A stretch of DNA of 64,000 nucleotides from a virus (taxonomy: Duplodnaviria > Heunggongvirae > Uroviricota > Caudoviricetes), in the IMG/VR virus record IMGVR_UViG_3300022562_000870, positions 4,184-68,183 of that record. The stretch is one strand, 5' to 3'. The notes under the pieces were generated by a model. It was not told the DNA's origin. It was given only the letters and a program-made list of their open reading frames with translations, and did no database searches. A program made the position numbers and the translations under genes. Shown piece by piece: positions 10,278 through 64,000 of this stretch (position 1 is its first letter; every line of letters begins with the position of its first letter).

Positions 10278-10622
10278 ATGCCAATGCAAGGAAAAGTATG
10301 GGGTAAAACCCAATTAATCGAACGTAATGCAAACTTTGAAGTTCATCGTATCGAAGCAAAGAAAGGTGGATTTTGTTCTAAGCACAAACATGAACACAAA
10401 TTCAACAAGTTCTTCGTTGAAAGTGGTAGATTTCAAATTGATGTTTGGCAAACAGATTACGATCTTGTAGATACTACCATTGTTGAAGCTGGTCAAAGCA
10501 CAACAGTTAAACCCGGACGCTATCACATGTTTAAAGCACTTGAAGATTCCGTGGTATATGAAATTTATTGGGTACAACTTGAAGCTGATGATATTCAGCG
10601 CGAAAACGTTGGTGGTAATTAA
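10278..10622 (+). CDS. cupin-fold protein (possibly sugar ketoisomerase-like)
   Basis: [17 protein letters not shown] has the cupin His pattern. It sits immediately upstream of kdsA. Confidence 0.4.
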
Positions 10623-11440
10623 TGGATAATCTTTGCGGATTTGAAATCGGAGGCGATAAGCCATTTTTTCTTATTGCTGGGCCTTGTGTTATTGAAGGCG
10701 AATATATCACCATGGAAACCGCAGAAAAGTTAAAAGAAATTACTGATAAACTTAATATTGGATTCATATTTAAATCTTCTTTCGATAAAGCTAACAGAAC
10801 TTCTATAAGGGGGTTTCGTGGATTAGGTATGGAAGCAGGATTGAAAATATTAGAAAAGGTTCGTAACGAATTCAATGTACCAATATTAACAGATGTCCAT
10901 GAAGATACGCCCATTGATGAAGTAGCAAGTGTAGTTAATGTTTTACAAACGCCTGCTTTTCTTGCAAGACAAACGAATTTTATAACTCGTGTTGCAGCAA
11001 CAGGTAAACCTGTTAACATCAAGAAAGCGCAATTTATGGCACCGTGGGATATGATTAACGTTGTAGAAAAAGCCAAGTCTACTGGCAACAAACAAATCAT
11101 GGTTTGTGAACGTGGTACATCGTTTGGATATAATACGTTGGTTTCTGATATGCGCTCGTTAGTTGAATTGCGCAAAACCGGATGCCCTGTTGTATTTGAT
11201 GCTACACATTCTGTACAGATGCCCGGTGGTCAAGGAACGTCTTCTGGTGGACAGCGCGAACACGTGCCGACGTTGGCGCGTGCGGCAGTAGCGGTCGGAG
11301 TTGATGGTTTATTCATGGAAACACATCCAACGCCAGACAAGGCTTTATCTGATGGACCAAATATGGTACCATTGCATGAAATGGAAAATCTGTTGCAAGC
11401 TTTAACGTCGATAGATTATGCAGCAAAAGCATACTTATGA
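10622..11440 (+). CDS. kdsA: 2-dehydro-3-deoxyphosphooctonate aldolase (KDO-8-phosphate synthase)
   Basis: Matches bacterial KdsA across the protein: [52 protein letters not shown]. Confidence 0.85.
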
Positions 11441-11883
11441 TTACTAATCTACAACTTGGTGCCAAGCTTTTACAGAAACGTTTAAAACCAAAAGAAAACG
11501 ATGATATGTACTACGGTGCTATAGTTCAAGAAGGACAAACTGCTGTTTGGTGTAACCTAAACAATGATTATGATTTATTAGAATCAGATATAAAACAGTT
11601 AAAACATTTAGGTTTTGTAATAGAAACTGACGGCGATATTTCCTTTTATTTTGGTGACGAAAAAGAAATTTGTACATGATATTAAAACGTATTGATGAAA
11701 TACTACGGGCAAAGCAACTAATGAAAATTTTTCAGGAGTGTGTAAACAATCCTGAAGCATATTTGATGGAAAAGAATAGACTTGGGACAGAATTTTTCGT
11801 AAATTTTTGGAAAAGTGGATTCAACGATGCTGCGAATGTTTATAATAAAACAAAATTTTGGTTTATGCGAAAAGTAAAACTTT

Positions 11884-12276
11884 ATGAATGATACTAAACA
11901 AGTTATAGTTCTTAGAAAAGATTTAAACATGCGCAAAGGTAAAATGGTTGCCCAAGGTGCACATGCTTCTATGAAAGCTATATTTGACCGTGGTAGAATA
12001 CGTAATCCAGACAGCAACGTGTTTGTTGTCGAAATGACGCCCGAAATGAAAGCGTGGATGATGGGAATTTTCACAAAAGTTTGCGTGAGTGTTAACAGCG
12101 AAGAAGAACTTCTAAATATACACAAACAAGCAGAAGATGCCGGATTAATTTGTAGTTTGATACAAGATGCTGGCTTAACGGAATTTGATGGTGTACCAAC
12201 ATATACGGCTGTTGCAGTTGGTCCTGCGAAACGCGAAGATGTAGATAAAATAACTGGACATTTAAAGTTATTATAA
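11884..12276 (+). CDS. peptidyl-tRNA hydrolase, PTH2 family
   Basis: VLRKDLNMRKGKMVAQGAHAS matches the Pth2 signature (VVRxDLxMGKGKxAAQCxHAA). Size about 130 aa. Confidence 0.7.
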   Translation: MNDTKQVIVLRKDLNMRKGKMVAQGAHASMKAIFDRGRIRNPDSNVFVVEMTPEMKAWMMGIFTKVCVSVNSEEELLNIHKQAEDAGLICSLIQDAGLTEFDGVPTYTAVAVGPAKREDVDKITGHLKLL

Positions 12277-12285
12277 AGCCCGATT

Positions 12286-12357
12286 AGCTGAGTTGGTTTA
12301 GCAACGCACTTGTAATGCGTAGACGGTGGTTCGAATCCGCCATTGGGCACCAATACT
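12286..12357 (+). tRNA. tRNA-Thr (UGU); CCA encoded
   Basis: Acceptor GCCCGAT/ATTGGGC. Anticodon stem ACGCA/TGCGT with loop CTTGTAA. T-arm GGTGG-TTCGAAT-CCGCC. Confidence 0.7.
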
Positions 12358-12368
12358 ATAGGTGATAT

Positions 12369-12707
12369 ATGATACAAAACGGTATAATATTCCGTGATGA
12401 GGAAGACCAAATATGGCTTGGTAAGTACGAAGATGGTACTATCAAATCATTTGAAAGTTTAGCAGATTATGAAGGGTTTTATGACGATTTGCCGCTGGAA
12501 AGACTTGTTTTCGTGGAAATTGATGAACAAGGTGAACAATTGTGGATAAAAGATCTTTTTACTTTCACGGTTGGGAAAGATGACGGAACTAATGAAGATA
12601 TAGATCCTGTTGTCATAACGCAGGTTTTAGAAGATCTTGGATTTCCAAGCGAAGAAAGTAATGACATGTTTGCAAGCTTTCTTACAGCAGCAGGTAAGGC
12701 AAATTAA
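12369..12707 (+). CDS. hypothetical acidic protein
   Basis: ORF between two tRNAs. Confidence 0.35.
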   Translation: MIQNGIIFRDEEDQIWLGKYEDGTIKSFESLADYEGFYDDLPLERLVFVEIDEQGEQLWIKDLFTFTVGKDDGTNEDIDPVVITQVLEDLGFPSEESNDMFASFLTAAGKAN

Positions 12708-12711
12708 TTAT

Positions 12712-12784
12712 TGGTCTGTAGTTCAATGGTAGAACGCCACCGTGACATGGTGGAGAAGTGGGTCCGACTCCCTCCAGATCAACC
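12712..12784 (+). tRNA. tRNA-Val (GAC) with an unusual T-loop (TCCGACT); CCA encoded
   Basis: Acceptor TGGTCTG/CAGATCA. D-stem GTTC/GAAC. Anticodon stem CCACC/GGTGG with loop GTGACAT. Confidence 0.55.
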
Positions 12785-12884
12785 AAATGTATTAGGTAAT
12801 AAATAACTGATTATGAATACTATAATTTTATTTTTTCAAAAAGGACACGGCTTTCGATCTTAGTGAAACTAAGAGGAGAAAGCA

Positions 12885-13529
12885 ATGTACTATCAAAACG
12901 AACCTGGTATCTATGTATACTATCTTGAACGTGTTTATTATAAACATGAATTAGATGTTATCGGTGAATTAAAGCTTAAATGTGTTTATTATAAATCTAT
13001 AGAAGATTTTATCTGGAAACACAACGAAGATACACTAAAAAACTGCTTTGGATATTCACCATATGATAAAATTTGCCAAGGAACCGTAGATAATCTCTAC
13101 CGCCGTAGCAAATATCATAGAAGACTCTATAATTACAAAACCGTAAAATGCGGAAAAACTAATTGTAGCGATCCAGAACATAGACACAACTTCAATCGTG
13201 TACGTGTCGTTTATGACCACAATGGGAATTTATATACACCAGATAGACTTATAGGATTACGTCGTAAATGGCTTCGCGAAAGAAAAAGCCGTTACTGGTA
13301 TGGATTTTCTGGAAGAAAACGTCGTCGTTGTTCCAGCCATCGCTCTATGCGCACTTTCCAAGAACGCAAATGGGCACATGCTTGGGATGATGAAGAATTT
13401 GCACCACGAGTACGTGCTGCAAGACAAGGTAAAAATCTTCCAGACGCTTGGGATGATTGGCATCGTCACAATGACAAGTGCTGGAAAACACAAAGTAAAC
13501 GCAAACATCAGTGGAAGGAGAAGAAATAA
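12885..13529 (+). CDS. hypothetical basic protein
   Basis: AGGAGA RBS. Lys/Arg-rich C-terminus. Confidence 0.4.
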   Translation: MYYQNEPGIYVYYLERVYYKHELDVIGELKLKCVYYKSIEDFIWKHNEDTLKNCFGYSPYDKICQGTVDNLYRRSKYHRRLYNYKTVKCGKTNCSDPEHRHNFNRVRVVYDHNGNLYTPDRLIGLRRKWLRERKSRYWYGFSGRKRRRCSSHRSMRTFQERKWAHAWDDEEFAPRVRAARQGKNLPDAWDDWHRHNDKCWKTQSKRKHQWKEKK

Positions 13530-13855
13530 TGACACATATGTGGAAAAGTGAAGAAGTATATACATTTGATATGCCATTATCACGCATTGATGATGTATAT
13601 GGAAAAAATGCTCGCTATCCATTATGGGCTTACTTGAAATATTATAATCCAAAAATAACGGATATGAAATTTGATGCAAAGTGCCCGGGATTACACGTAA
13701 TAGTATCTGTTCCTAAATACCACGGAAGTCATCCGTATTTCACCAACGAAGATGTGAAGAAGCTACTTGACACATATATGGATTATGCAAATGCTTCATA
13801 TAAAGAAATTGAAGCATGGTATAAAACAAAAGGATCGAATAATGTCAAGCCGTGA
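13511..13855 (+). CDS. hypothetical protein
   Basis: ORF overlapping its neighbours. Confidence 0.35.
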   Translation: MEGEEIMTHMWKSEEVYTFDMPLSRIDDVYGKNARYPLWAYLKYYNPKITDMKFDAKCPGLHVIVSVPKYHGSHPYFTNEDVKKLLDTYMDYANASYKEIEAWYKTKGSNNVKP

Positions 13856-14080
13856 TGGATTTGATTTAGAATATTTTGTTGAAGATTCTTTCAGAAATAT
13901 TACTAAAGAACAAGAAGAAGCTATCGTCGAATTGTTGGAACCCGAAAGGGAATCAATTGAATACTTCATATTGTATGATTTTGATGAAGAAACCATGTCA
14001 TGGCGTGACTATCGTAATGGAATGTGGTATAATCTCGAACAGTACGAAGATCGTATAAACAATATCTTAAAGGATGAATA

Positions 14081-14365
14081 ATGTTAATAGCTTTAGACTT
14101 TGATGGAACATATACGGCAGATCCAGAACTGTGGGATATGTTTATAAAACAGTCGCGTGAACGCGGCCATGAAGTAATAATCGCAACAATGCGCTATGCG
14201 GATAGTCTGGAAAGTGTGGGTGTAGAATGCATCCTCAAAGATAAAGTAGATAGAATCATTTATACCAATCGAAAAGCCAAAAAATCTTCCGTTCGTGTGC
14301 AGTATAAAGACCCAGATATATGGATTGATGATAATCCTGATTGGTTATACGAAGACGCACTATAA
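14081..14365 (+). CDS. small HAD-like phosphatase-fold protein
   Basis: N-terminal LDFDGTYT matches the DxDGT motif I of HAD phosphatases. Confidence 0.4.
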   Translation: MLIALDFDGTYTADPELWDMFIKQSRERGHEVIIATMRYADSLESVGVECILKDKVDRIIYTNRKAKKSSVRVQYKDPDIWIDDNPDWLYEDAL

Positions 14366-14366
14366 A

Positions 14367-14439
14367 TGCTTGATAAACTTTGCTGGTGAAGCCTGCTCTC
14401 GTAAAGCAGTGGAAGGCGGTTCGAATCCGCCATCAAGCT
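14367..14439 (+). tRNA. tRNA-Thr (CGU); CCA encoded
   Basis: Acceptor GCTTGAT/ATCAAGC. Anticodon stem CTGCT/AGCAG with loop CTCGTAA. T-arm GGCGG-TTCGAAT-CCGCC. Confidence 0.7.
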
Positions 14440-14530
14440 CCATTCCCCCTTTAACCTAAAAAAATCATTGCAATTATGTTCAAAATGTCGTATCATCTTT
14501 GTGTTAAATTCTTTTTAGAAGGTTACAGAA

Positions 14531-15943
14531 ATGAACGAAGAAACGAATGAAGAACTTTTAGACAAAATAGTAGAAGCTGCTGAAAAAGAACCAGCACCAT
14601 TTGAATTAATCGTTGGGGGTGAGAGGGGCGAAATTACAAATGGTGATGTGCCTGTTAGATGGTGTGTTACACCAGAACTTGTAAAACAAATGGAAGATGC
14701 TGGTGTTAAAGACCCACATGTTCTATTAGTTACAGCAACGCCAAAAGCGCGGGAAATGCACAGGCAACTAATTCCACTTACCGAATTAAAAGCATATGTA
14801 CGCTTTTACAAAGCAGGCGAACAAAAACTATATGGTTTTATAATTAATGGTGCAAAGGGGCGCAGATTCCTTCATAGCGCGTATTTGCAAAAAACATACA
14901 GAGGTTATAATACGGATATATTCTGTACATGGGATGAACGAGCGTATGACGAAATCGATGAAGAATTTGCGCGAACAGAAATAACACTAGATATTCCTGC
15001 CAATGTTTTTGGTAAAGAACCAAGTCCTTGGATGAAATGGTACGTCAATCTTTGGCATCCAACCTATAATACTGTTGATGAATGTCATTATCGTAAGCGC
15101 TGGCTTCTAGCGTTTTCAATTAAATGGATCTTTGTTATAGCATGGGCTATATTGTACACCACGTTTCGCATCGGTGTTGCGGCGGTGATGTCATTAGGAG
15201 GATATTTTAAACAAATAGAATGGAAGCTATTATTAAGACCATATAAATGGCATAGCATGGATCATGTGTTTGGTGATTTTGATTTTTCGGATAGTTTTTT
15301 CTTTATCAAACGCGAGCAGGTAACTTCATATGGTGCAGTGTTTGAGCGGTTTATATTTTTTCCCTTTGTATTAAATCCATTAATTCTTACAGTGTTGGGA
15401 TTAATTTATCTAACAGTGCCCGAAACGGGACAGTTAGTAATGCAAATCCTGTTTGGAATAGCATTAGGTATGTTTCTAATATTCGATATATTCATCTTTC
15501 TCTGTGATTACTTTGAAAAACATGGAACTTTTGGAATAAATGGTACAGTTGGTAAATATATTAACAAATTACCAATGCCAGAATTTGAAGCTAAATTTTT
15601 CAAAATTGTTGGAATTATTGCATTAGTTGGAATAGTACTCGGAGCATTATTTCTTGTTTGCTTCAAATTCGAACTCTTATTGCAAGTATTTTTGCCAGTA
15701 GCAGTTGCGGCTGTGTTAGCATGGATATTTGTTAAATATGGATTGGATTTGTTGGACAGATTTGATAATTTTATTTCCGTATCACCGGCAAAGAACGATT
15801 ACACCGAAATACGAGAACTTTTATGTCCAAGGGATAAACTAAACCTATCAACAGATACGGCTTTTATTCCACCAGAAAAACGCACTATACGTTTATGGTA
15901 TAATGACATGAAGAACAAAGTTTGTAAACCTATGCAACGATAA
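14531..15943 (+). CDS. hypothetical multi-pass membrane protein (470 aa)
   Basis: Soluble N-terminal half and a C-terminal half with several hydrophobic helices. Confidence 0.5.
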   Translation: MNEETNEELLDKIVEAAEKEPAPFELIVGGERGEITNGDVPVRWCVTPELVKQMEDAGVKDPHVLLVTATPKAREMHRQLIPLTELKAYVRFYKAGEQKLYGFIINGAKGRRFLHSAYLQKTYRGYNTDIFCTWDERAYDEIDEEFARTEITLDIPANVFGKEPSPWMKWYVNLWHPTYNTVDECHYRKRWLLAFSIKWIFVIAWAILYTTFRIGVAAVMSLGGYFKQIEWKLLLRPYKWHSMDHVFGDFDFSDSFFFIKREQVTSYGAVFERFIFFPFVLNPLILTVLGLIYLTVPETGQLVMQILFGIALGMFLIFDIFIFLCDYFEKHGTFGINGTVGKYINKLPMPEFEAKFFKIVGIIALVGIVLGALFLVCFKFELLLQVFLPVAVAAVLAWIFVKYGLDLLDRFDNFISVSPAKNDYTEIRELLCPRDKLNLSTDTAFIPPEKRTIRLWYNDMKNKVCKPMQR

Positions 15944-15964
15944 GGGTTTTATAGATATAAATAC

Positions 15965-15994
15965 GAGGCGGATGCATCACGTATCCGCCTTTTT
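15965..15994 (+). terminator. rho-independent terminator
   Basis: GGCGGAT-loop-ATCCGCC hairpin followed by TTTTT. Confidence 0.6.
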
Positions 15995-16088
15995 ACTTTA
16001 TAGGAGACAATTATGAACATGAAAACGTGAAAGCCCATGCCGCTGCTGACAATATCGTCAGGTGCTGGATGTGGGCTAGGAGAAAGTC

Positions 16089-16385
16089 ATGTTCAAAAAT
16101 ATGTCCCGTGCGATTCGTCGCCACCATCGTGCTCGTTTAAAGAAAGCCCGTCAAAATTATTGGGGATATGGAAAATTCGGTTGGCGCAGTTACTGCCAAT
16201 TTGAAACCATAAAAATGTCACCCCAAGTCCATGGAAGTGTAGTAAATACCCCAACCCCTTGTTCTTGTTATATGTGTGGTAATCCACGTCGTAATACATG
16301 GCAAAGTGCAAAAGAATGCCTTACGATGCAAGAACGTCGAGCTTTTGAAGATTATAAATACAACATCGAAGAATTAATAAAATAA
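16089..16385 (+). CDS. hypothetical Cys-containing protein
   Basis: ORF after a terminator, with an AGGAGAAAG RBS. Confidence 0.35.
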   Translation: MFKNMSRAIRRHHRARLKKARQNYWGYGKFGWRSYCQFETIKMSPQVHGSVVNTPTPCSCYMCGNPRRNTWQSAKECLTMQERRAFEDYKYNIEELIK

Positions 16386-16407
16386 TTAAAACAGTAGGAT
16401 AATAAAA

Positions 16408-17121
16408 ATGATAAAGCCTATAATGCTTTGGATAACATCACGCAGTCGCTCTTCAATGGTATCAAGGATTTTTGCTGAACATGGAATTTTTTGGGGTAAT
16501 ACGCAAAGACAATCGGCGGGATATGATACTTATGAAAATCAAACTATAAAAAGCTTGCAACATAAATTTAAACCTAAATGGTGGGTAGATCATAGAAGTC
16601 CTATCCGCGCACCAGAAAGCGTATTTTTAGAATTTCAACGCGCATTAGAAAAAGTAATACCCGAAAATGTTATATGGTCTATGAAAACTGGAGTGGAATA
16701 TTTTCCTGCGTATGAAAGTTTGGAACCATATAATATATTCATTAAACGAAAACCTGAAGATGTTGCAAAATCGTTGATTGAAAAAAACTTTAGTGCTGCA
16801 TTTAATAGAACTAAAGATTCTGTTAATAAAACCAAAGCATTAACTAATGCAATTAGAGGCATATCACTCACCGAAATTCATGCGCTATTAGATAAAACCA
16901 ACCACGAATTAAATAAAAAATACAATTCGTTAATAGCGGAGGCGTTGGAAACTATAACAGCTAGATATGAATATATGGATATTATTCAAGCCAAACATGG
17001 TGGTATATTTGTAGATACTGATAAGATTGTTAATGGTGATTTTTCCGAAATTAAAATGGCCATGGAATATTGTGGTATAGAATACAATGAAGAATTAACA
17101 AAAAAGGCTATTGTAAAATGA
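16408..17121 (+). CDS. hypothetical protein (first gene of the sugar-modification cluster)
   Basis: ORF with ATGA overlap to the downstream gene. Confidence 0.4.
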   Translation: MIKPIMLWITSRSRSSMVSRIFAEHGIFWGNTQRQSAGYDTYENQTIKSLQHKFKPKWWVDHRSPIRAPESVFLEFQRALEKVIPENVIWSMKTGVEYFPAYESLEPYNIFIKRKPEDVAKSLIEKNFSAAFNRTKDSVNKTKALTNAIRGISLTEIHALLDKTNHELNKKYNSLIAEALETITARYEYMDIIQAKHGGIFVDTDKIVNGDFSEIKMAMEYCGIEYNEELTKKAIVK

Positions 17122-17918
17122 AATTTGAAGATGATGTAAAAGAAAAGATGGAAGATTTACCGGCTAAAGAAATTGCAAGAATAACCGACAAAACTCCGCC
17201 CAAAAACTGTCCCCTTGGCGATCCTATTGAACCAATCTATAAAGGCGAAACTGCTATCCTAATAGCAACTGGTCCAAGTCTTAACGATGATCAACTTGAA
17301 TTTGTAAAGAAGCAGCAAGACGCTGGCAAATGTCGTGTTTTTACTATAAACAATGTATACCAGCGCGTTCCATGGACAGATGCACATCTTTCTTGTGATG
17401 GTCCTTGGTGGAGATGGTATGGACCACGTTCACAAAAACTTAAAGACCTTAAATGTCCAAAATATACTTGGTACTATGATATTGCACAAGAATTAAAAGA
17501 GTTTGGTGTAAAATATATCCGGGCGATAGAAAAACCCGGATTATCGCTCGATCCACGCACAATACATATTAACCATGGCAGTGGTCCAATGTGGATTAAT
17601 TTAGCATTACATTTTGGTATTAAACGGCTGGTATTAATTGGACATGATATGAAATTTGCACCGGATTATAAGCCACATGAAAAAATGCCAGGTTCAACAC
17701 CACGACATTATTTTAATGAATATCCTGGTCCTTTACAACACTGGCCAAGTGTTAAAGTTGGTTTATCTAAACCCGGCGTTTTAGATGGATTAATAGAAGC
17801 GTATAAAAAGATGATTCCACAACTTGAAGAAGTTGGTATGGATGTTGTTAATTGTACTCCTGATTCTGCACTAACAATTTTTAGAATGTCAACATTAGAA
17901 GAAGAGTTTAAAGAATGA
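17118..17918 (+). CDS. DUF115/MptE-like (Maf-type glycosyltransferase-like) protein
   Basis: Architecture and motifs (ILIATGPSL, FTINNVY) resemble the 6-hydroxymethylpterin diphosphokinase MptE-like domain of Maf proteins. Tentative. Confidence 0.4.
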   Translation: MKFEDDVKEKMEDLPAKEIARITDKTPPKNCPLGDPIEPIYKGETAILIATGPSLNDDQLEFVKKQQDAGKCRVFTINNVYQRVPWTDAHLSCDGPWWRWYGPRSQKLKDLKCPKYTWYYDIAQELKEFGVKYIRAIEKPGLSLDPRTIHINHGSGPMWINLALHFGIKRLVLIGHDMKFAPDYKPHEKMPGSTPRHYFNEYPGPLQHWPSVKVGLSKPGVLDGLIEAYKKMIPQLEEVGMDVVNCTPDSALTIFRMSTLEEEFKE

Positions 17919-18601
17919 TAGATTATATGGATTTTGAATATGGATTTACATGGACAAGTAATACCAAATGGATGATGCCATCCGATGAAAAACTATTCCA
18001 AAATCAATTTGCTATTGTAGATGAATTTATAGATACAACATTAGCATATATTCCAAAAAACAACCGGGAGGTTTGTATACAGGCAGGTGCTTGTATAGGG
18101 CTTTGGCCTATAAAGTATTCAAACTTTTTTGAAAAAGTTATCACTTTTGAACCACTATTAGAAACCTACAATTGCGCGGTAGAAAATATTAAACGCTGCA
18201 ACGTAAACAATATTGATATATTTAATCGAGCACTAGGCCCTAATACAAAAGTAAAAATGAAATATTCTAAAGAAAAAAATCTATCTCGTTCATATGGTGC
18301 ATATCATGTAGTTGAAGCAACAGATGGCATGGAAACTATGCCTATAGATGATATCCCATTAAATGGAAAACGAGTAAGTCATATACAGCTCGATGTTGAA
18401 GGGTATGAACTTAAAGCTTTAAAAAGTGCACAAAATGTAATTAAAACTTTTAGACCCGTAATTGTAATCGAACAAAGATCTTTAAGCCATTTACATACCC
18501 TTGGTGTTAAAATTAATAGTGCAAAAGAATGGTTGGAAAATGAGCAAGGATATATAGTTAAGGAAAGAATCGGTAACGATTTTATAATGATATCAAAATA
18601 A
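17915..18601 (+). CDS. FkbM-family methyltransferase
   Basis: VCIQAGACIGLWP (the FkbM DxGAxxG-like motif) and C-terminal conserved blocks. Confidence 0.5.
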   Translation: MIDYMDFEYGFTWTSNTKWMMPSDEKLFQNQFAIVDEFIDTTLAYIPKNNREVCIQAGACIGLWPIKYSNFFEKVITFEPLLETYNCAVENIKRCNVNNIDIFNRALGPNTKVKMKYSKEKNLSRSYGAYHVVEATDGMETMPIDDIPLNGKRVSHIQLDVEGYELKALKSAQNVIKTFRPVIVIEQRSLSHLHTLGVKINSAKEWLENEQGYIVKERIGNDFIMISK

Positions 18602-18613
18602 TAAGGAAAAGAG

Positions 18614-19612
18614 ATGCCTATACCAGAGGATATACAAGTCCATGTACTTGATATGGAACTTAATGGTGGATGTAATTATAAGTGTAAAATGTGTCCCCAA
18701 TCAGTCAGCCGTGAAAAAGAATTTCTTAAAAAACTGCCGCTTGATGTATTTGAAAAAGTAATAGATGATGCTATGCAATATGGTTTAAAAACTGTTACAT
18801 TGCATGGAAGTGGCGAACCTACACTCAACAAAGATATGCCAGATTTTGTTCGTGCTGTAAAAAAACGCGGATTAACTTGTATTAGTTTTACAAATGGATT
18901 AAAACTTACCGAAAAACTTTCTAAAGAACTTATCGATGCAGGGATCGATATTCTTCGCCTCTCATGTATTGGATACGATAAAGAAACTTATGAAGAATGG
19001 ATGGAACGCGGAGATTATGATTTAGTTCGCGAAAATGCAAAACGTTTTGTTGAACTAGCTAAGGGCAAAAATACCGAAATGCATATTAATCATCTCATTA
19101 TTGATAAAGATAACATAGATTATGAAATAGCCATGTATCGTAAAAATTGGGGTGAATATACTGGTGCACGTTCTGAAATGTGGTTGATGCATAATTGGAG
19201 TCATAGTGATAAGGTTGAATTAAAATATCTACGTGAAGAATTCTTAAATAAGAAAAAACTTCGTACATGTGGTAGACCATTTGCGCCATTGCTCCAAGTT
19301 AGGGCTGGTGGTTTAGATGGACATAAAGCAGCTGTAGTAGCCTGTTGTATGGTATTAGGTAAAGATAGTCAAGGCGTACTTGGTCATCTTGATACAGATT
19401 CTATCGCTGATGTTGTTAATGGTGAATTATATACGGAATTGCGCAAGGCACATGAAGAAAAGCGGTTTGATGATATATCTTATTGTAAGGGATGTGACCA
19501 ATTAATTGATACGCCAGAGGCTTTAGTGTGGTGTGATATTCCCGGCCGTGAATATGGTCAAAGCAAAAACCTTGCTACACTTAATTTTTTAAATTATTCT
19601 AAGGATAAGTAA
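18614..19612 (+). CDS. radical SAM enzyme
   Basis: CNYKCKMCP is the CxxxCxxC cluster. Additional C-terminal cysteines are consistent with an auxiliary cluster. Confidence 0.65.
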   Translation: MPIPEDIQVHVLDMELNGGCNYKCKMCPQSVSREKEFLKKLPLDVFEKVIDDAMQYGLKTVTLHGSGEPTLNKDMPDFVRAVKKRGLTCISFTNGLKLTEKLSKELIDAGIDILRLSCIGYDKETYEEWMERGDYDLVRENAKRFVELAKGKNTEMHINHLIIDKDNIDYEIAMYRKNWGEYTGARSEMWLMHNWSHSDKVELKYLREEFLNKKKLRTCGRPFAPLLQVRAGGLDGHKAAVVACCMVLGKDSQGVLGHLDTDSIADVVNGELYTELRKAHEEKRFDDISYCKGCDQLIDTPEALVWCDIPGREYGQSKNLATLNFLNYSKDK

Positions 19613-20399
19613 ATTCATAAAGACGCTTACCACTTTGGGGATATAATTGTTCCCAAAATGTACCATCTTGAATTTCTGCATGATGCCATTGACAATGAGC
19701 TAAATGCTGCAACAGGGGTAAACGTTCTGGATATCTTATATCATCCAAAGAATGTCCCGTAATACCATATGCTGCATCACCAACATCCATAGAGATAACA
19801 GGTATTCCTTCCAATAACATATCTAATGAAACTGTAGAATTTAAAACTATAGCGGCTTTAACATTTACTAGATCATCTACTAATGGATTTTGCTTACCTT
19901 TTGTAGGATGAGGACGAAATTTAACAGGTTCCTTAACCATAGCCCTAACTTCAGAATACCAATTTTCTAAACTTTTATATTTCATACATCGCGCCAAATC
20001 CGCTTGACCGCAAAGTAAAAATTGCTCGCCGCTTTTTTTCCATGGTTTTATTTGTTCTTCAGGATTCATAAATTTATGAAGGCGTGACGGTAAAACTTCT
20101 TTTACGCAATGAAATCCTAATCCATTAAATCCCGTCCAACTTAAAGAAACAATATCACCAGCAACATGGTCTTCTTTGCCAAAAAATTTTCGGTTGACCA
20201 TAATTCTTGGTTTACCGGATGCTTCTACGCCTTTCCAATGATTGGGTCCAAATAATATTGCAACATCACAATCAGGAAGATATTTTCTTTCTGAAGTTAT
20301 GCGCACGGTTATATTGTGTTTTTTAAAACCACTAGTAAAAAATTCAGACCAACGGGCGTGCCACGGAATTGACTTGTTTGCGTGGATAACAATATTCAT
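19599..20399 (-). CDS. capsule-polysaccharide-synthesis family protein; KpsS/KpsC-like candidate beta-Kdo transferase
   Basis: FRPHP (HP motif) and downstream LNSTVSLDMLLEGIPVISMD resemble the Capsule_synth (KpsC/KpsS) family. Tentative. Confidence 0.35.
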   Translation of the reverse strand: MNIVIHANKSIPWHARWSEFFTSGFKKHNITVRITSERKYLPDCDVAILFGPNHWKGVEASGKPRIMVNRKFFGKEDHVAGDIVSLSWTGFNGLGFHCVKEVLPSRLHKFMNPEEQIKPWKKSGEQFLLCGQADLARCMKYKSLENWYSEVRAMVKEPVKFRPHPTKGKQNPLVDDLVNVKAAIVLNSTVSLDMLLEGIPVISMDVGDAAYGITGHSLDDIRYPERLPLLQHLAHCQWHHAEIQDGTFWEQLYPQSGKRLYEFTYP

Positions 20400-20402
20400 T
20401 GT

Positions 20403-20975
20403 TTATATAACTTTTTTTCTACACCATGCGTTATCTGGGCCTATGATATAACCGGGTAAGAGTTCATCTGCTACTACTTTAACCGTAGGCCAGTTAATGT
20501 CGTGTCCTATTATGGTGCCAGTATCTTTAACTTTTGGTGACCATGTTAAAATATCATTGCGAACTGCTTCCGTAGAATGGTCTGCATCTATGAAAATAAA
20601 ATCCAAACTATTATCTTCTACTAATTTGGAGGCTTCTGTTGTTGTCATTCTATGAATAACTGCGCGATCCCCAAATTGTTTGGCACCCATAACTACACGC
20701 TGATAATTTTGTTCATGTGGCCACTCAATATAATTTTCTGGGCCTTCATTTTCTGGTTGCGGTTCCCACAGATCAACGCCAATCATCTTTACATCTGGAC
20801 AATTAGCAAGAACATGCAAAAATGTTCTACCTTGCCAGACACCCAATTCAGCACCAAGTTTCCAATTATTTGCCTTAACCATACTAGCTATCCATTGTTC
20901 CCTGCGCCAATGTGGTGGTACTTTTACTTGTGATTTGGCTGGATTTTTATTCCATGTTTCTATATCGTATTTCAT
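20403..20975 (-). CDS. class I SAM-dependent methyltransferase (TylF/macrocin O-methyltransferase-like)
   Basis: GAELGVWQGRTF SAM-binding motif and FIFIDADH. Confidence 0.5.
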   Translation of the reverse strand: MKYDIETWNKNPAKSQVKVPPHWRREQWIASMVKANNWKLGAELGVWQGRTFLHVLANCPDVKMIGVDLWEPQPENEGPENYIEWPHEQNYQRVVMGAKQFGDRAVIHRMTTTEASKLVEDNSLDFIFIDADHSTEAVRNDILTWSPKVKDTGTIIGHDINWPTVKVVADELLPGYIIGPDNAWCRKKVI

Positions 20976-21061
20976 TATTGTTCTTCTCCTGTGGTAATCT
21001 TGACCTTTGTCTATTTATATGATATAAATACGACCGATAATAATAACAAAAAGGTGAAATC

Positions 21062-21802
21062 ATGTCAAGAATGATCACACAATCTACATTAACTATTAAT
21101 GGGATTGATCTTAAAACCCCCAATTTACTAGAACCGCCGCCACGCGTAACTGTTGGAAAAGCTCCAGAAAAATTAATTGTTGCATGTGTGTGGTGGGGAA
21201 CATTATATCCGATTGAATATGTTAAAAGGTTATATAATTCTGTTAAACGTAACCTAACTATTCCACACGAATTCGTCTGTATAACGGATAATGAAGTTCC
21301 TGAAGGAATAACCAAAATAAAACCTCCTTTGTCAGATTCTAAAAAGGGATGGTGGCAAAAGGTAGGTTTATTTCATCCAGATTTATTTCCAACAGATGCA
21401 CGTATCCTTTATCTTGATTTAGATGTGGTAATTGTCGGATCATTAAACAATATTGCTAAGGTGCGCGAACCTTTTTGCATGATTGAAAATTATGGTCCAA
21501 ATAAAGGACATGCTGCGCACAATTCATCTGTTATGGTTTGGACACCTTCGGAAAATACATATAATATCTACAATAAATTTTCAGAAGATGTTATGCAGCA
21601 ATTGCATGGCGATCAATGTTATATTTGGCGTGTTCTTCGTGATAATATACACGATTATCCAAAAAGTTGGGTAGTATCATACAAATACGAAAAATATCCA
21701 CAATGGAATCATGCTGACAAAAATACTGCAATTTATGTATTTCATGGACAGCCCAAACCACATGAAGTAAAAGATCCACTTATAGTAGAAAATTGGAGAT
21801 AG
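21062..21802 (+). CDS. glycosyltransferase with DXD motif
   Basis: YLDLDVVIVGSL is a DxD-type nucleotide-sugar transferase signature. Confidence 0.45.
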   Translation: MSRMITQSTLTINGIDLKTPNLLEPPPRVTVGKAPEKLIVACVWWGTLYPIEYVKRLYNSVKRNLTIPHEFVCITDNEVPEGITKIKPPLSDSKKGWWQKVGLFHPDLFPTDARILYLDLDVVIVGSLNNIAKVREPFCMIENYGPNKGHAAHNSSVMVWTPSENTYNIYNKFSEDVMQQLHGDQCYIWRVLRDNIHDYPKSWVVSYKYEKYPQWNHADKNTAIYVFHGQPKPHEVKDPLIVENWR

Positions 21803-22362
21803 GAATGGTAGGGCTACCAGAACAGGAAGTACGTGCGCTTGGCGAATTACCTGAAGGAATTAGATTGCTAGAATTGGGAAATAAGAAAAATTCTGGTGGG
21901 TTATATAGAAATTGGTATATAGATAAAAATGTAAACTATTGGTGTACAGACATTAATGGTCGGGATGGTGCTATACCATGGGATATACGTGAAGAAATTC
22001 CACAAGAATTATTAGATCTTGCTCCCTTCGATTTTATAACGAATTTTGGATTTACAGAACACGTTCAAACAGATCATGGACAAGAAATGGCATGGAAAAA
22101 CATACATCTACTTTTAAAACTTGGTGGAAAATTATGTTGCACTTTGCCACAACCAGGATATAGAAAAGATCATGGAAAGGCTAGAGGATTTCCAGGCATT
22201 TATTATCCACATCCAGAATTCTTTGAAAATTATGCGGAACTAAATAGTTATATTATTGAAGACTTATGGATATCTCAAAACCATCTAGTCTGTTGTAGAA
22301 TGATTAAAAAACGAGATGGTGATTTTATAATGCCAGCAACAGGAATGTTTAAAAATGTCTGA
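21793..22362 (+). CDS. hypothetical protein
   Basis: ORF inside the cluster. Confidence 0.35.
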   Translation: MEIGMVGLPEQEVRALGELPEGIRLLELGNKKNSGGLYRNWYIDKNVNYWCTDINGRDGAIPWDIREEIPQELLDLAPFDFITNFGFTEHVQTDHGQEMAWKNIHLLLKLGGKLCCTLPQPGYRKDHGKARGFPGIYYPHPEFFENYAELNSYIIEDLWISQNHLVCCRMIKKRDGDFIMPATGMFKNV

Positions 22363-23167
22363 GTTAAAATTAACTAGCGATGAATATAAATTAACTAAAG
22401 AACAGCCGCAGCCAGAACAGGCTAACAAATTACAGCAGCGCAGAATACGGGCACAGCAACAAGCACGACAGCAGCAGCGGCGAGAACCATCAACATCTAA
22501 TAGAATTAATAAGGTGTTGGAATTCGACCCTGCGGATTATGATTATGCTTGTTATATTGTAGGCAGCGGCACGTCGATGAAAAACTTTGATTGGTCTTTA
22601 CTTGACGATCCTAAAAAATTTATCGTCGCCATCAACAACAATTATACTAAGTTACCAAGTGCGCAGATATTATATTGTACGGATGAACCATGGGTAAAAG
22701 AACATGCTGAAGATATAGAAAATTTTAACGGTGTTATATATCAGGGCGTTCTTAATTTGACTAACCCACCCAAACATCCAGTTGTTGACAAGCGTTGGCA
22801 TTTAACAGGATTTGATGGGTATGAAACAAAAGAAGGATGTTTGAAGCATGGCTCGAATTCGGCGTATGCGGCATTAAACATGTGTGCGGCGCATCTTGGA
22901 TTTAAGAAAATACACTTAGTAGGTATCGATATGAAATGGGGGCAAAAGGGAAACAGAAAAACCTCCCACTGGCATTCCGACGTTCGACCACATAAACGCA
23001 TAGACCACGAAGCAGTATACGATAAAATGATGTCTGCCTATAAAACTATAAGGCAACCCTTACTTGATGCTGGTGTTGAAGTTATAAATGTCAATACTGC
23101 AACAGGTACGGATTTGCGCGAATTCCCAATAAAATCAATAGAATCTGTATTTGGTAAGAAGACTTGA
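22355..23167 (+). CDS. DUF115/MptE-like protein (second copy) with Gln-rich N-terminus
   Basis: Core YIVGSGTSMKNF resembles the 17118 ORF. CAG-repeat-encoded QQRRIRAQQQARQQQRR stretch. Confidence 0.4.
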   Translation: MSELKLTSDEYKLTKEQPQPEQANKLQQRRIRAQQQARQQQRREPSTSNRINKVLEFDPADYDYACYIVGSGTSMKNFDWSLLDDPKKFIVAINNNYTKLPSAQILYCTDEPWVKEHAEDIENFNGVIYQGVLNLTNPPKHPVVDKRWHLTGFDGYETKEGCLKHGSNSAYAALNMCAAHLGFKKIHLVGIDMKWGQKGNRKTSHWHSDVRPHKRIDHEAVYDKMMSAYKTIRQPLLDAGVEVINVNTATGTDLREFPIKSIESVFGKKT

Positions 23168-23667: not shown

Positions 23668-24152
23668 TGAAATCTATTAAACCACCACAAAAATACAACC
23701 CTGAAGAAGACGAGGGCTTATCAATTTTTCTAGCAGGTTCAATATCGCAAGATACAGCCGAAAGATGGCAAGAATATGTAGAACGGCGATTCGAAAATTA
23801 TGACCATATTACATTTTTAAATCCACGACGCGATGAATGGAAAGTCTCGAAGGAAATGGAAGATGCTGCATATAAAAGATATTTTACCGAACAGGTCACG
23901 TGGGAAACAGAAAATCTTGAAGCCGCCACGAGTATTTTTATGTACTTTGATCCAAATACGGTTTCACCGATATCATTATTGGAATTGGGAACATACGGAA
24001 AAAGTGAAAAAATGATGGTTTGCTGCCCAAAAGAATATTTTAGATATTACAATGTTGAATTTTTTTGTAATTATAATGGTATAACATTTTTTGATGACTT
24101 AGAAAAATCGTTGATACATTTAGAAGATTTAATCAAACTTTATATAATATGA
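23667..24152 (+). CDS. nucleoside 2-deoxyribosyltransferase-like protein
   Basis: IFLAGSISQD Rossmann-like motif, typical of the NDT/Rcl fold. Confidence 0.45.
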   Translation: MKSIKPPQKYNPEEDEGLSIFLAGSISQDTAERWQEYVERRFENYDHITFLNPRRDEWKVSKEMEDAAYKRYFTEQVTWETENLEAATSIFMYFDPNTVSPISLLELGTYGKSEKMMVCCPKEYFRYYNVEFFCNYNGITFFDDLEKSLIHLEDLIKLYII

Positions 24153-50954: not shown

Positions 50955-51725
50955 ATGATAATACCTATAGTGACATCAACCGATGATGGCTATTTGCCCG
51001 GTTGTATAGCTTTATATAATTCCTATTTAAAAAATTCAAAGGATGGGTTTAGTTTCCATGTTCTTGCTTATGGTGATGAAAGTTTAAAAGAAAAACTTCA
51101 TGCAGCCGGTATAGAAAATGTATATCTAAATGCGGCGGTTGGGGCTGAACGCATTCCTAAGAGTGTTAAATATGATTGGTATCGTCATGAAATCGAATCA
51201 AGTGCAATGTATGCGCGATTGATTATTCCAGACTTATTTCCAGATGTTCCATATTCTATTTACGTAGATGCGGATGCTATCATTCTTAAATCATTAAAAG
51301 GTTTATTAGTTAACATGAGTGACTACCCATGTGGTGGTACACAATCATGGTCAACAATGGTGGCAGATGTTCCAGATGCGGGATTAACAGAAAGGGGAAT
51401 AATGACGAGCTTTTTGGTTTTTAATCATAAAGCATGGAAAGAAAAAGATGTTTATGTGAAATGTATCGAACTAATGAATACGAGTAAGTTACATTTTAAA
51501 ACTGTGGTACAAGGTGTACTTCAAATGGTGATTCGTCAAGATTATTATATGTATCCTGAATTTCATCAAGTACAAGCAAGTCACGATACCACGATAGACA
51601 GAATTAAAGATGCATATATACTTCATTTCGTTGGGTATAATCCTTGGGAAAAAATACCACAAGAATTATTAGATAGAAAACCTGTTAGAAGGTTTACATT
51701 AGATATATGGAGAAAATACGCATGA
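50955..51725 (+). CDS. glycosyltransferase family 8-like
   Basis: IVTSTDDGYLPGCIAL and YVDADAIIL (DxD) resemble the GT8 LgtC/glycogenin fold. Confidence 0.5.
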   Translation: MIIPIVTSTDDGYLPGCIALYNSYLKNSKDGFSFHVLAYGDESLKEKLHAAGIENVYLNAAVGAERIPKSVKYDWYRHEIESSAMYARLIIPDLFPDVPYSIYVDADAIILKSLKGLLVNMSDYPCGGTQSWSTMVADVPDAGLTERGIMTSFLVFNHKAWKEKDVYVKCIELMNTSKLHFKTVVQGVLQMVIRQDYYMYPEFHQVQASHDTTIDRIKDAYILHFVGYNPWEKIPQELLDRKPVRRFTLDIWRKYA

Positions 51726-63739: not shown

Positions 63740-64000
63740 ATGATTAAACATACAAAATTTTTTGGTGTGTCTTTGCCAAGGACGGGAACATCGTCCTTGG
63801 CTTATGCTGTTAAGCACCTTGGATTATATACAGCGCATTATCTGCCAGAAAGTACCTATGCGCATATCCATATGTATGATTTTGCTAATGATTTTCCCAT
63901 TCCGCTTCGGTATAAGGAACTTGATAAACGATTCCCTAATTCCAAATTCATTTATACGGATCGGCCTGTAGAAGATTGGTTGAAATCCTATGAAACGCAT
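63740..64000 (+). CDS. sulfotransferase-like protein (partial, continues past the window end)
   Basis: GVSLPRTGTSSL resembles the PAPS 5'-phosphosulfate-binding loop. Confidence 0.4.
   Translation, partial: MIKHTKFFGVSLPRTGTSSLAYAVKHLGLYTAHYLPESTYAHIHMYDFANDFPIPLRYKELDKRFPNSKFIYTDRPVEDWLKSYETH

Follow-up and report, generated by a model that had tools for sequence, protein, structure and literature searches.

A phage gene cluster that is an enlarged copy of a widespread glycosylation cassette and probably serves to sugar-coat the virus particle

The DNA analysed here, referred to as the window, is a stretch of 64,000 nucleotides from an uncultured jumbo phage of the Caudoviricetes (positions 4,184 to 68,183 of IMG/VR record IMGVR_UViG_3300022562_000870). 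A preliminary reading of the sequence alone had picked out a set of sugar-related genes, and those that it named proved to be real genes. The features considered are the following.

10278..10622, plus strand: small cupin of 114 aa, type II phosphomannose-isomerase C-terminal or WbuC-like (Pfam, PHROGs)
10622..11440, plus strand: KdsA, KDO-8-phosphate (3-deoxy-8-phosphooctulonate) synthase (NCBIfam and Pfam profiles)
15965..15991, plus strand: terminator-like hairpin, 11-bp stem and T run (consensus match only)
16408..17121, plus strand: protein of an unannotated phage family with sulfotransferase-like motifs
17118..17918, plus strand: DUF115-A, Maf-like/sialyltransferase-like glycosyltransferase, catalytic core only
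17915..18601, plus strand: FkbM-family SAM methyltransferase (PF05050 2.7e-13; TIGR01444 7.7e-21)
18614..19612, plus strand: radical SAM enzyme with SPASM/twitch domain (PF04055 1.3e-17; PF13186 6.4e-7)
19599..20399, minus strand: KpsC/WbbB/KrkA-like glycosyltransferase (the HP-motif ORF), 266 aa, single module
20403..20975, minus strand: Methyltransf_24-type SAM methyltransferase (PF13578 1.4e-17; phrog_2675 2.4e-24)
21040..21068, minus strand: best sigma-70-like promoter match (TTGACA, 17 nt, TATTAT, upstream TG)
21062..21802, plus strand: GT-A glycosyltransferase, distantly GT8-like, D-L-D motif invariant (phrog_1962 2.5e-26)
21793..22362, plus strand: probable class I SAM methyltransferase, weak (Methyltransf_23, PF13489 5.9e-4, under the gathering score)
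22355..23167, plus strand: DUF115-B, second Maf-like/sialyltransferase-like protein (phrog_4603 2.6e-22; PF01973 9.3e-4)
50955..51725, plus strand: GT8 glycosyltransferase, first gene of a separate glyco pair (PF01501 7.1e-20)
51707..52621, plus strand: NAD-dependent sugar epimerase/dehydratase, overlapping the GT8 gene (PF01370 1.8e-34)
63740..64000, plus strand: Sulfotransfer_4 protein, first 87 of 196 codons, cut by the window end

Judged by its equivalog-level match, ORF 10622-11440 encodes a genuine KDO-8-phosphate synthase, as first proposed: it scores 437 bits against NF003543 (cutoff 242) and 413 bits against TIGR01362 (cutoff 314), both NCBIfam KDO8P synthase equivalogs, and matches Pfam DAHP_synth_1 at 2.3e-74. 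The cupin (PF01050 27.9 bits, gathering score 23.6; Cupin_2 6e-6; phrog_7851 2.7e-13) ends where KdsA begins, in a TAATG overlap of stop and start codons, and kdsA would be translationally coupled to this small sugar-isomerase-type protein. Neither KdsB (CTP_transf_3) nor KdsD (SIS) was found in a Pfam scan that covered chosen plus-strand ORFs (60 aa or longer) of the window and, on the minus strand, those within 10278-23167; to that extent the initial view of a window devoid of kdsB and kdsD holds.

About 5 kb separate kdsA from the cluster, a gap that holds tRNA genes, PTH2 and the terminator-like hairpin. The latter sits between the cluster and the gene just upstream, encoding a multi-pass membrane protein of 470 aa; terminator-like sites in the region total what chance predicts. 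The promoter match agrees at 11 of 12 positions and falls within the 86-bp gap between divergent genes, ahead of the minus-strand pair, a site that is only suggestive as the overall count of such sequences equals chance. The cluster does not lie beside structural genes, occupying instead a tRNA-rich accessory region with two of its genes on the opposite strand. Directly downstream are Phage_30_3 and nucleoside 2-deoxyribosyltransferase-like genes, followed further on by a type II restriction-modification pair and a Dam-like methylase.

The two DUF115 ORFs are members of one phage family and form a single BLAST cluster, both scoring below the Pfam gathering threshold. DUF115-B is grouped with its partner by sequence, and it is the predicted model of DUF115-A that shows a CMP-sugar-type fold, with the flagellin glycosyltransferase Maf as nearest fold; the two Maf-like proteins postulated beforehand are thereby retained. 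Maf itself (DUF115/PF01973, PDB 5MU5) measures about 630 aa, whereas the window proteins correspond to the core only (about 220-270 aa) and are devoid of the flanking domains thought to hold flagellin. The GT42 sialyltransferases Cst-I and Cst-II rank with Maf as the closest known systems. Maf enzymes work with pseudaminic or legionaminic acid.

The minus-strand HP-motif ORF, initially likened to KpsS/KpsC, is in its predicted model a fold relative of the retaining beta-Kdo transferases KpsC (GT107), WbbB (N-terminal domain, GT99) and KrkA (PDB 6MGD/6MGB, 5FA0, 9YFX), from which it differs by a sequence identity of 11-15% and by having no match to Pfam Capsule_synth. The (K/R)-x-H-P cytosine/phosphate-binding motif of these enzymes reads R162-P-H164-P165 in the window protein, a conserved Gln before an acidic residue is common to all, and N-S-T stands at the place of their phosphate-binding Ser pair. 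The nucleophile motif, strictly Q-x-x-x-D in proven Kdo transferases, is Q-A-D-L-A here, and across the family jumbo phages show Q-A-D and siphoviruses Q-T-E at this position (Q-x-D/E); even H-P is lost in a few members. The KpsC-type fold does not fix the sugar, because one KpsC homologue transfers pseudaminic acid and not Kdo (PMC12887879). Unlike their comparators, the phage genes often stand within head operons, and their surroundings hold no genes for kps or O-antigen export. Profile-HMM annotation, the check proposed along with the sequence-only reading, assigned neither the KpsS-like nor the DUF115 ORFs to unrelated families.

The third transferase, first noticed as a DXD glycosyltransferase, matches Pfam GT8 at 2.6e-4, under the gathering score. 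The best PDB matches of its family profile are GT8 enzymes (led by 6mw5, 0.0023; 5gvv, 0.004; glycogenin, 0.012), and the assignment draws on these and on the PHROGs match. It is a homologue of phage P1 PmgQ, annotated as 'putative morphogenetic', with which it shares about 30% identity.

The expected tailoring enzymes are present as the FkbM, radical SAM/SPASM, Methyltransf_24 and weak Methyltransf_23 proteins; the radical SAM enzyme reaches no NCBIfam equivalog at its cutoff. The assignment of 16408..17121 is uncertain. Its family (49 homologues, all lacking Pfam domains) carries TSRSRSS and R-x-PEDVA-x-S nearly invariantly in the alignment, and these are similar to the two motifs with which sulfotransferases bind PAPS; one of 26 members matches Sulfotransfer_3 (3.4e-5), and an hhalign comparison with the Sulfotransfer_4 protein of this phage did not support sulfotransferase kinship. 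An APS kinase gene lies just past the window, about 5 kb beyond the Sulfotransfer_4 gene, in the contig extension, and in one relative, L002, a Sulfotransfer_1/3 gene directly precedes the DUF115 gene. The GT8 and epimerase genes reported elsewhere in the window are likewise confirmed by their Pfam scores.

The cluster is an enlarged copy of a widespread, undescribed phage glycosylation cassette. Within 10 kb of DUF115, in 80 IMG/VR loci retrieved by DUF115 patterns alone, many of them on short contigs, a GT8-like gene occurs in 64 and a KpsC-like gene in 43. These three genes make up a recurrent core, usually accompanied by methyltransferases, to which the window adds a second DUF115, further methyltransferases, the radical-SAM/SPASM enzyme and the possible sulfotransferase; the Methyltransf_23-like family appears in 25 of the 80 loci and the 16408..17121 family in 11. 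Three related jumbo-phage contigs carry the window's genes in the same order. The grouping is not a matter of chance, since gene order is kept in these three contigs and the core trio stands together in most of the 80 independent loci. Fusions also occur, of GT8-like with KpsC-like in one locus (L070) and of KpsC-like with a sialyltransferase-like domain in another (P0323).

HK97-type structural genes, verified with PHROGs, accompany the cassette in 67 of 80 loci. In 45 of the 53 loci with a major capsid gene, DUF115 follows it by at most three ORFs; in 29 of the 30 that show both capsid and head-tail adaptor (connector) genes, it lies between the two and in the orientation of the head operon, an arrangement of HK97-type siphoviruses. 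Cultured phages agree: Pseudomonas phage D3 orf7 likewise falls between major head protein and adaptor, and Caulobacter phage CcrBL9 gp527 comes after the tail fibre genes. The 25 most frequent of 50 Pfam families in 111 representative neighbouring ORFs included neither flippases nor ABC transporters, polyprenyl-phosphate transferases or ligases, which fits a cytoplasmic acceptor. CMP-sugar synthetases and NeuB-type synthases were equally missing from the 25 most frequent of the 50 families, so that a host-supplied donor is needed.

The position between capsid and adaptor and the lack of export or lipid-carrier genes favour cytoplasmic glycosylation of virion proteins over remodelling of LPS or capsule. 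The cassette probably sugar-coats the virus particle. In its full form the proposal, our leading one though held with slightly less than even confidence, is that late in infection the cassette places an acidic, O-methylated glycan on virion proteins with Kdo as the proposed donor. We infer what is modified, with which sugar and in what sequence of steps, as follows. Soluble cassette enzymes would act in the cytoplasm late in infection. Like Maf on flagellin, a DUF115 enzyme would begin the glycan by linking a CMP-activated ulosonic acid to Ser/Thr; elongation would fall to the KpsC-like and GT8-like enzymes, and capping to the methyltransferases. The product would be a short glycan, most likely on the head, and perhaps also sulfated in the window phage. 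CMP-Kdo, made by every Gram-negative host, would be the most economical donor; phage KdsA would enlarge the Kdo pool and the host would provide KdsD, KdsC and KdsB. Against a virion target, the window's own cassette lies away from structural genes, a place in the head operon implies late expression and not necessarily a structural acceptor, and the literature searched reports no glycan on virions of cassette-carrying phages.

A different view, unlikely but the best of the others, has the cassette modify the surface of the infected host, its targets being LPS core or O-antigen, capsule linker, flagellin or pilin, and would end in blocked superinfection or changed recognition by grazers. KdsA would feed extra Kdo to LPS or capsule, lipid-linked glycans would be the substrates of the KpsC-like and GT8-like enzymes, and flagellin that of the Maf-like ones. 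The natural acceptors of the nearest structural relatives agree with it, namely capsule glycolipid (KpsC), O-antigen (WbbB), capsule polymer (KrkA) and flagellin (Maf), as does the frequency of GT8 enzymes in LPS core synthesis. Phage-borne kdsA has also been interpreted as host-surface modification in a marine viral genome (PMC5332604) and, with kdsB, in cyanophage S-SCSM2R (PMC12801897), whose KdsA is 41% identical to that of the window. In those phages, however, kdsA is paired with kdsB or nucleotide-sugar genes, and Maf-like or KpsC-like transferases are not reported with it. The upstream membrane protein, conserved in two of three jumbo relatives, could serve such remodelling, but it is missing in L002 and all siphovirus cassettes and parted from the cluster by the hairpin. 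Neither the window cluster nor the 25 most frequent of 50 neighbour families includes a lipid-carrier-initiating transferase, flippase, ABC exporter, polymerase or ligase, and serotype-conversion genes do not usually keep a constant head-operon placement.

It is rather improbable that kdsA merely sustains the host Kdo/LPS pool or another phage need while the cluster uses another sugar, such as pseudaminic or legionaminic acid, or does without ulosonic acids. The intervening 5 kb with its tRNA genes, PTH2 and hairpin speaks for such independence, as do the unconserved QXXXD, the KpsC homologue that transfers pseudaminic acid and the sugars of Maf enzymes. Moreover, kdsA accompanies the cassette in the jumbo lineage only (1 of 80 IMG/VR loci), and cupin homologues of 44-52% identity occur near the cassette in four other loci (L011, L012, L013 and L071) with no KdsA within 10 kb. 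Nevertheless, the cupin-KdsA adjacency and the order cupin, kdsA, cassette are kept in all three jumbo relatives, the models of the KpsC-like protein and DUF115-A suggest CMP-sugar-type folds, and no nonulosonic-acid synthase or CMP-synthetase appears in the window or the 25 most frequent of 50 neighbour families, such sugars not being made by all hosts.

That the cassette's transferases decorate modified DNA bases with Kdo or other glycans and so evade restriction is very improbable: a phage glycosyltransferase is reported to put a Kdo-like sugar acid on hydroxymethylcytosine (bioRxiv 10.1101/2023.12.21.572611), and the Phage_30_3, deoxyribosyltransferase-like, restriction-modification and Dam-like genes lie downstream, but neither the window nor the 25 most frequent of 50 neighbour families holds a cytosine methyltransferase/TET-type oxygenase or hydroxymethylase partner, the predicted folds match Kdo transferases and Maf rather than T4 beta-glucosyltransferase-like enzymes, and the cassette is found in head operons.

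Of the functional reading first made, modification of virion proteins is thus the part favoured. We infer Kdo as donor from the jumbo-lineage synteny of KdsA, the CMP-type folds predicted for the transferases and the lack of a CMP-sugar synthetase; the link is tentative, since kdsA lies 5 kb away, the strict QXXXD is absent and no CMP-sugar synthetase was found.

Virion glycosylation has a counterpart in mycobacteriophages, where phage glycosyltransferases encoded beside structural genes reportedly decorate capsid and tail-tube subunits. Glycans on these subunits are attributed to Freeman et al. (2023, Cell Host Microbe) in the description given by PMC12619734, and the work is also cited in PMC12691614. 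As far as these accounts describe such operons, the cassette is placed equivalently, immediately behind the major capsid gene (the 45 of 53 loci above), with enzymes of other families, ulosonic-acid-type and GT8-like, and probably Gram-negative hosts; in the window phage, unlike in those operons, the cassette has moved off the structural genes. If glycosylation of virion proteins is indeed its function, phages would possess a different, ulosonic-acid-type enzyme set for coating their particles.

The gene cluster at 16408-23167, hereafter the cassette, is very probably a glycosylation module, and the identities of the enzymes described below are assigned with high confidence. Its core trio consists of DUF115 (Maf-like), GT8-like and KpsC-like proteins, and its full content is as follows.

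Gene content of the cassette at 16408-23167
16408-17121: ORF of an unannotated family
17118-17918: DUF115-A, Maf-like
FkbM methyltransferase
Radical-SAM/SPASM enzyme
19599-20399, minus strand: KpsC-like protein of 266 aa, without Pfam match
Minus strand: Methyltransf_24 enzyme
21062-21802: GT8-like protein
Weak Methyltransf_23 match
22355-23167: DUF115-B, Maf-like

The minus-strand protein at 19599-20399, which the sequence-only reading had likened to KpsS/KpsC on account of an HP motif, does carry a (K/R)-x-H-P motif and possesses the modified GT-B-like fold of the retaining beta-Kdo transferases (GT99, GT107 or KrkA type). According to the 2026 KrkA paper, the conserved elements of these enzymes are a (K/R)XHP CMP motif, a Ser pair on the phosphate and a QXXXD motif in which Asp is the covalent nucleophile and Gln binds the Kdo carboxylate; one KpsC homologue transfers pseudaminic acid (PMC12887879). 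In the window protein the first of these motifs reads R162-P163-H164-P165, with R162 and P165 invariant in the family alignment and H164 conserved in at least 90%; R-x-H-P is missing in a few distant phage members (at loci L009, L011 and L013). Gln132 is invariant as well, yet it opens the sequence Q-A-D-L-A, in which position +2 is Asp and position +4 is Ala. The siphovirus versions carry Q-T-E, and Q-x-x-x-D is kept by outlying members only. Since the HP motif and the Gln are present but Q-A-D-L-A takes the place of QXXXD, the protein is filed as one that 'works like, folds like' the retaining beta-Kdo transferases rather than as a proven member.

The window protein gave no match to Pfam Capsule_synth (PF05159) at E <= 0.01, and the best PDB match of the family profile is KpsC, at a weak E of 0.11; one family member (P0262) reaches 22.5 bits against the Capsule_synth gathering score of 20 and two others match weakly. 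An exhaustive profile search collected 5,063 clusters at E <= 1e-3, the listed members being mostly ~250-290 aa long. About ten viral proteins with the same fold were found in BFVD by Foldseek, including, in Tetraselmis virus 1, proteins annotated 'capsule polysaccharide biosynthesis' and, in Caulobacter phage CcrColossus, one that is uncharacterised, and tblastn of deposited phage genomes returned just one KpsC-like homologue, a weak one. Tetraselmis virus 1 holds several such proteins, Tetraselmis viridis virus records hold DUF115 homologues (tblastn), and the cell coverings of Tetraselmis are rich in Kdo.

That the cassette encodes two DUF115/Maf-like proteins, as had been proposed from the sequence alone, is upheld by the matches of both ORFs to phrog_4603 (about 1e-21 and 1e-22) and by a sialyltransferase-like central fold in the one that was modelled, DUF115-A; their scores against Pfam PF01973 (29.7 and 19.5 bits) stay under the gathering score of 34.6. 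Most of the listed homologues have a precomputed PF01973 match. The alignment with 5mu5 spans 195 residues and covers the core only, the flanking domains of full-length Maf being absent (266 and 270 aa vs 632 aa in 5mu5), and no flagellin gene lies near the two ORFs. The GT8-like protein likewise falls below the Pfam gathering score (21.1 vs 24.3) and keeps an invariant D119-L-D121; when its family profile is searched against the PDB, GT8 enzymes lead the matches (E 0.002-0.02). It is ~30% identical to PmgQ of phage P1, annotated with a 'putative morphogenetic function', and has homologues in related jumbo phages. A Pfam scan of selected plus-strand ORFs also bears out the GT8 and epimerase pair noticed elsewhere, at 50955-52621. 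Single-sequence searches of unannotated window ORFs against the PDB returned noise only.

Upstream of the cassette, the ORF at 10622-11440, recognized as KdsA on first reading, is by profile assignment a KDO-8-phosphate synthase at equivalog level: both NCBIfam equivalog cutoffs are exceeded (NF003543, 437 bits against 242; TIGR01362, 413 bits against 314) and the match is full length (residues 4-269 of 272). Its start codon is overlapped by the stop codon of a 114-aa small cupin (10278-10622) scoring above the Pfam cutoff for the type II phosphomannose isomerase C-terminal domain. This overlap and the isomerase-type match made it attractive to regard the cupin as a non-SIS arabinose-5-phosphate isomerase replacing KdsD; the idea is weakened by homologues that follow the cassette in four loci lacking kdsA within 10 kb. 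KdsB (CTP_transf_3) and KdsD (SIS), which had not been visible to the eye, were equally absent from the Pfam scan of selected plus-strand ORFs elsewhere in the window. Neither gene was found in ~9.5 kb more at the 3' end; on the 5' side, gene calls from a short contig cover ~0.8 kb beyond the edge. A 94-aa ORF at 14081-14365, kept in the jumbo relatives, displays HAD-phosphatase-like motifs (LDFDGT ... IDDNPD), has no Pfam match and could be a minimal phosphatase, for instance a KdsC-like Kdo-8-phosphate phosphatase. Just upstream of the cassette, the gene at 14531-15943 encodes a protein of 470 aa, soluble in its N-terminal part and otherwise rich in hydrophobic segments, whose sole match is a weak one to CobS; the gene stops at a strong terminator-like hairpin and is conserved in two of the three jumbo relatives.

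Two further genes point to sulfation encoded by this phage. A Sulfotransfer_4 gene starts at 63740, is cut by the end of the window and continues on an overlapping contig (L006, 8695-9285), where an APS kinase gene follows ~5 kb further on (14519-14953, minus strand). The product of APS kinase is PAPS, the sulfate donor, and from these two genes the phage probably makes and uses PAPS. Within the cassette, the ORF at 16408-17121 has nearly invariant TSRSRSS and R-x-PEDVA-x-S motifs resembling the PAPS-binding motifs of sulfotransferases. It has no Pfam or NCBIfam match, and one of the 26 members of its family matches Sulfotransfer_3 (3.4e-5). We do not claim this ORF as a sulfotransferase, the case consisting of the motifs and that one member, and hhalign against the Sulfotransfer_4 protein of the phage giving 0.1% probability.

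The window has a G+C content of ~36%, carries nearly all its genes on the plus strand and includes 28 tRNA genes (ARAGORN). Besides the genes already described, it encodes two RNA ligases, an ADP-ribosylglycohydrolase, a PTH2 peptidyl-tRNA hydrolase (11884-12276), a 180-aa RF1-like protein with PCRF and RF-1 domains (9228-9770), a GMP-reductase/IMPDH-like protein and a complete type II restriction-modification pair (N6_N4 DNA methylase and EcoO109I-like endonuclease) followed by a Dam-like methylase (28955-31212). Megablast of 10278-23167 and 30000-54000 against 50,697 phage records found no near-identical DNA. Between the Rnl1-type RNA ligase and its counterparts in jumbo phages of 300-360 kb (Vibrio 2.275.O, Stenotrophomonas CM1, Xanthomonas Xoo-sp13 and Cronobacter GAP32) the identity is 40-43%, a metagenomic contig of 100,960 bp encodes proteins 100% identical to window proteins, and close relatives occur on contigs of 363,531, 301,415 and 122,089 bp. 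On the strength of the ligase likeness and of these large contigs, the window is taken as the accessory region of an uncultured jumbo phage. Since the only prophage-type match to the cassette in reference bacterial genomes lies on a 6.6-kb MAG contig, no host is assigned.

Several further features of this region deserve mention. The tRNA array contains a tRNA with anticodon CUA (44111-44184; an amber suppressor labelled 'Pyl' by ARAGORN). Genome-wide TAG recoding, an idea raised by this tRNA and the RF1-like protein, is unlikely, TAG stopping 14 of 101 plus-strand ORFs and the read-throughs being mostly short; the ORF at 35866-36390 stops at a TAG in frame with 36403-36891, so that read-through would add 166 codons. 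Directly 3' of the cassette, in an arrangement kept in the relatives, lie genes for a T4 gp30.3-family protein (Pfam Phage_30_3) and two nucleoside 2-deoxyribosyltransferase-like proteins (23200-24152 and 25325-25783). The 294-aa ORF at 42097-42981, which precedes the main tRNA array, matches the T4 Gp23 major capsid profile in its middle part only (1.7e-11) and may be a capsid-fold paralogue or remnant. A saccharopine-dehydrogenase-like gene followed by that of a small PQ-loop membrane protein (33244-34629) forms a pair unusual for a phage. Promoter and terminator scans of the region gave overall site counts equal to chance, and the individual sites singled out, two in all, are to be taken with caution.

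All three jumbo relatives share the gene order RF1-like, cupin, kdsA, PTH2, cassette and Phage_30_3, and differ in the content of the cassette. In one, a genuine Sulfotransfer_1/3 gene immediately precedes DUF115; a second carries a GT90-like gene and additional FkbM genes; and the radical-SAM gene occurs in two of the three. Loci for surface glycans typically show turnover of this kind. A scan of IMG/VR by two DUF115 peptide patterns alone widened the comparison to 80 distinct loci, in which GT8-like (64 loci), KpsC-like (43), MT23-type (25), FkbM (21) and 16408-family genes (11) lie within 10 kb of DUF115; kdsA does so in a single locus, that of the jumbo relative itself.

The neighbors of the cassette in these loci were established by clustering all 1,390 ORFs and checking representatives with PHROG. 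An HK97-type head-tail module (large terminase, portal, protease, major head protein, head-tail adaptor, head closure, neck and tail terminator) is present in 67 of the 80, usually in the order terminase, portal, protease, major capsid, then one or two DUF115 genes, methyltransferase, GT8-like and KpsC-like, then adaptor. In 45 of the 53 loci with a capsid gene, DUF115 follows it at a distance of at most three ORFs; in 29 of the 30 that show both capsid and connector, it is placed between the two, and this interval contains little beyond the cassette except methyltransferases and a few small proteins. Among cultured phages, orf7 of Pseudomonas phage D3 (DUF115) has the major head protein on one side and the adaptor on the other, and gp527 of Caulobacter phage CcrBL9 (DUF115) comes just after the tail fibre genes, near a methyltransferase. 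PMG1, like D3, has DUF115 and a methyltransferase within its head operon, and CcrSC, like CcrBL9, has DUF115 behind its tail fibre genes. In the window itself the cassette occupies an accessory region and adjoins neither capsid nor tail-tube genes. Other neighbors, drawn from the 25 most frequent of 50 Pfam families in 111 representative ORFs, include more enzymes of glycan tailoring, namely GT8, GT10, GT25, TylF, epimerase, radical SAM and 2OG oxygenase; the same 25 families comprise no flippase, ABC exporter, polyprenyl-phosphate transferase or ligase, and no CMP-sugar synthetase or NeuB-type synthase.

Two fusion proteins support, at the level of sequence, joint action of the enzymes of the cassette: a single 455-aa protein joining GT8-like and KpsC-like parts (L070:7018-8385), and a 681-aa protein (P0323) in which a KpsC-like part is fused to a GT29 sialyltransferase-like region. 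Small proteins occupy the junction between the major capsid and first DUF115 genes in many siphovirus loci. Three loci (L020, L025 and L026; e.g. L025:5622-6095) encode a Ser/Thr/Ala-rich protein of ~157 aa between the major capsid and the first DUF115, and others (L030:5287-5574, L035:5607-5849) have small junction proteins, with a Lys-rich type of 80-115 aa; these are possible decoration proteins and might act as acceptors of the glycan.

Because the cassette travels with the head operon, no export machinery is among the 25 most frequent neighboring families and its transferases are soluble, the simplest reading is that it serves virion proteins. The relatives of these transferases use nucleotide-activated sugars in the cytoplasm, and the transferases would glycosylate virion proteins before or during assembly. 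CMP-Kdo is universal in Gram-negative bacteria. Folds of the CMP-sugar type are seen in the KpsC-like protein and, with the DUF115-A model standing for both, in the DUF115 proteins, and no CMP-sugar synthetase is among those 25 families, so that host CMP-Kdo would be the most economical donor. In the jumbo lineage kdsA would raise the Kdo supply; methyltransferases would cap the glycan, which sulfotransferases and the radical-SAM enzyme might modify further in this phage. Mycobacteriophage operons provide a precedent for virion glycosylation (Freeman et al. 2023, as described in PMC12619734), and share with the relatives of the cassette, not with the window, glycosyltransferase genes that adjoin the capsid gene. 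Taken as a whole, from virion acceptor to Kdo donor and kdsA supply, this explanation falls a little short of an even chance.

The toolkit had also been proposed to remodel host LPS or capsule. The natural acceptors of the structural relatives are in keeping with a host-surface role for the cassette and kdsA, as are earlier readings of phage kdsA (PMC5332604; PMC12801897), but it is made unlikely by the lack of export genes among the neighboring families listed and by the place of the cassette in head operons. It is improbable, too, that kdsA is unrelated to the cassette and that another sugar is used, for all that kdsA stands at a distance, a terminator-like hairpin intervenes, other cassette loci do without kdsA and the nucleophile motif is altered. 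DNA hypermodification, for which a Kdo-like sugar reported on 5-hydroxymethylcytosine (bioRxiv 10.1101/2023.12.21.572611) offers a model, is highly improbable, no base-modification partner genes having been seen in the window or beside the cassettes and the folds being unlike those of DNA glycosyltransferases.

Phage kdsA genes were known already (PMC5332604; PMC12801897), as was virion glycosylation in mycobacteriophages. The literature searched yielded no paper on phage DUF115/Maf-like or KpsC-like proteins, and three elements appear undescribed in it: the conserved cassette of Maf-like, GT8-like and KpsC-like genes, its placement within head operons in many phages, and the expanded jumbo-phage form linked to kdsA and sulfation genes. 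Returning to the virion reading, we suggest very tentatively that there is a large unrecognised class of phages of Gram-negative bacteria whose heads are coated with a short methylated Kdo-type glycan, also sulfated here, made by a cassette between capsid and connector. Its size is hinted at by the KpsC-like family alone, with more than 5,000 sequence clusters of whatever origin.

If true, a virion glycosylation system would to our knowledge be described for the first time outside actinobacteriophages, and Kdo for the first time in linkage to protein. The retaining ulosonic-acid transferases would gain a new branch in which the nucleophile motif is shifted to Q-x-D/E, a natural experiment on how Kdo transferases carry out their unusual double displacement. 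It would also provide a compact soluble enzyme set for placing ulosonic acids onto proteins. The sugar-coating of phages would be common in environmental phages of Gram-negative hosts rather than a mycobacteriophage peculiarity, bearing on how charged and how sticky the particles are in sea water and sediment, on recognition by grazers and immune systems, hence on phage therapy, and on the reading of cryo-EM density on capsids. The trio is in itself a useful annotation for thousands of hypothetical proteins. Even with a host-surface target, a fixed transferase trio moves through unrelated phage lineages and, in jumbo phages, acquires kdsA, genes for sulfation and radical-SAM chemistry.
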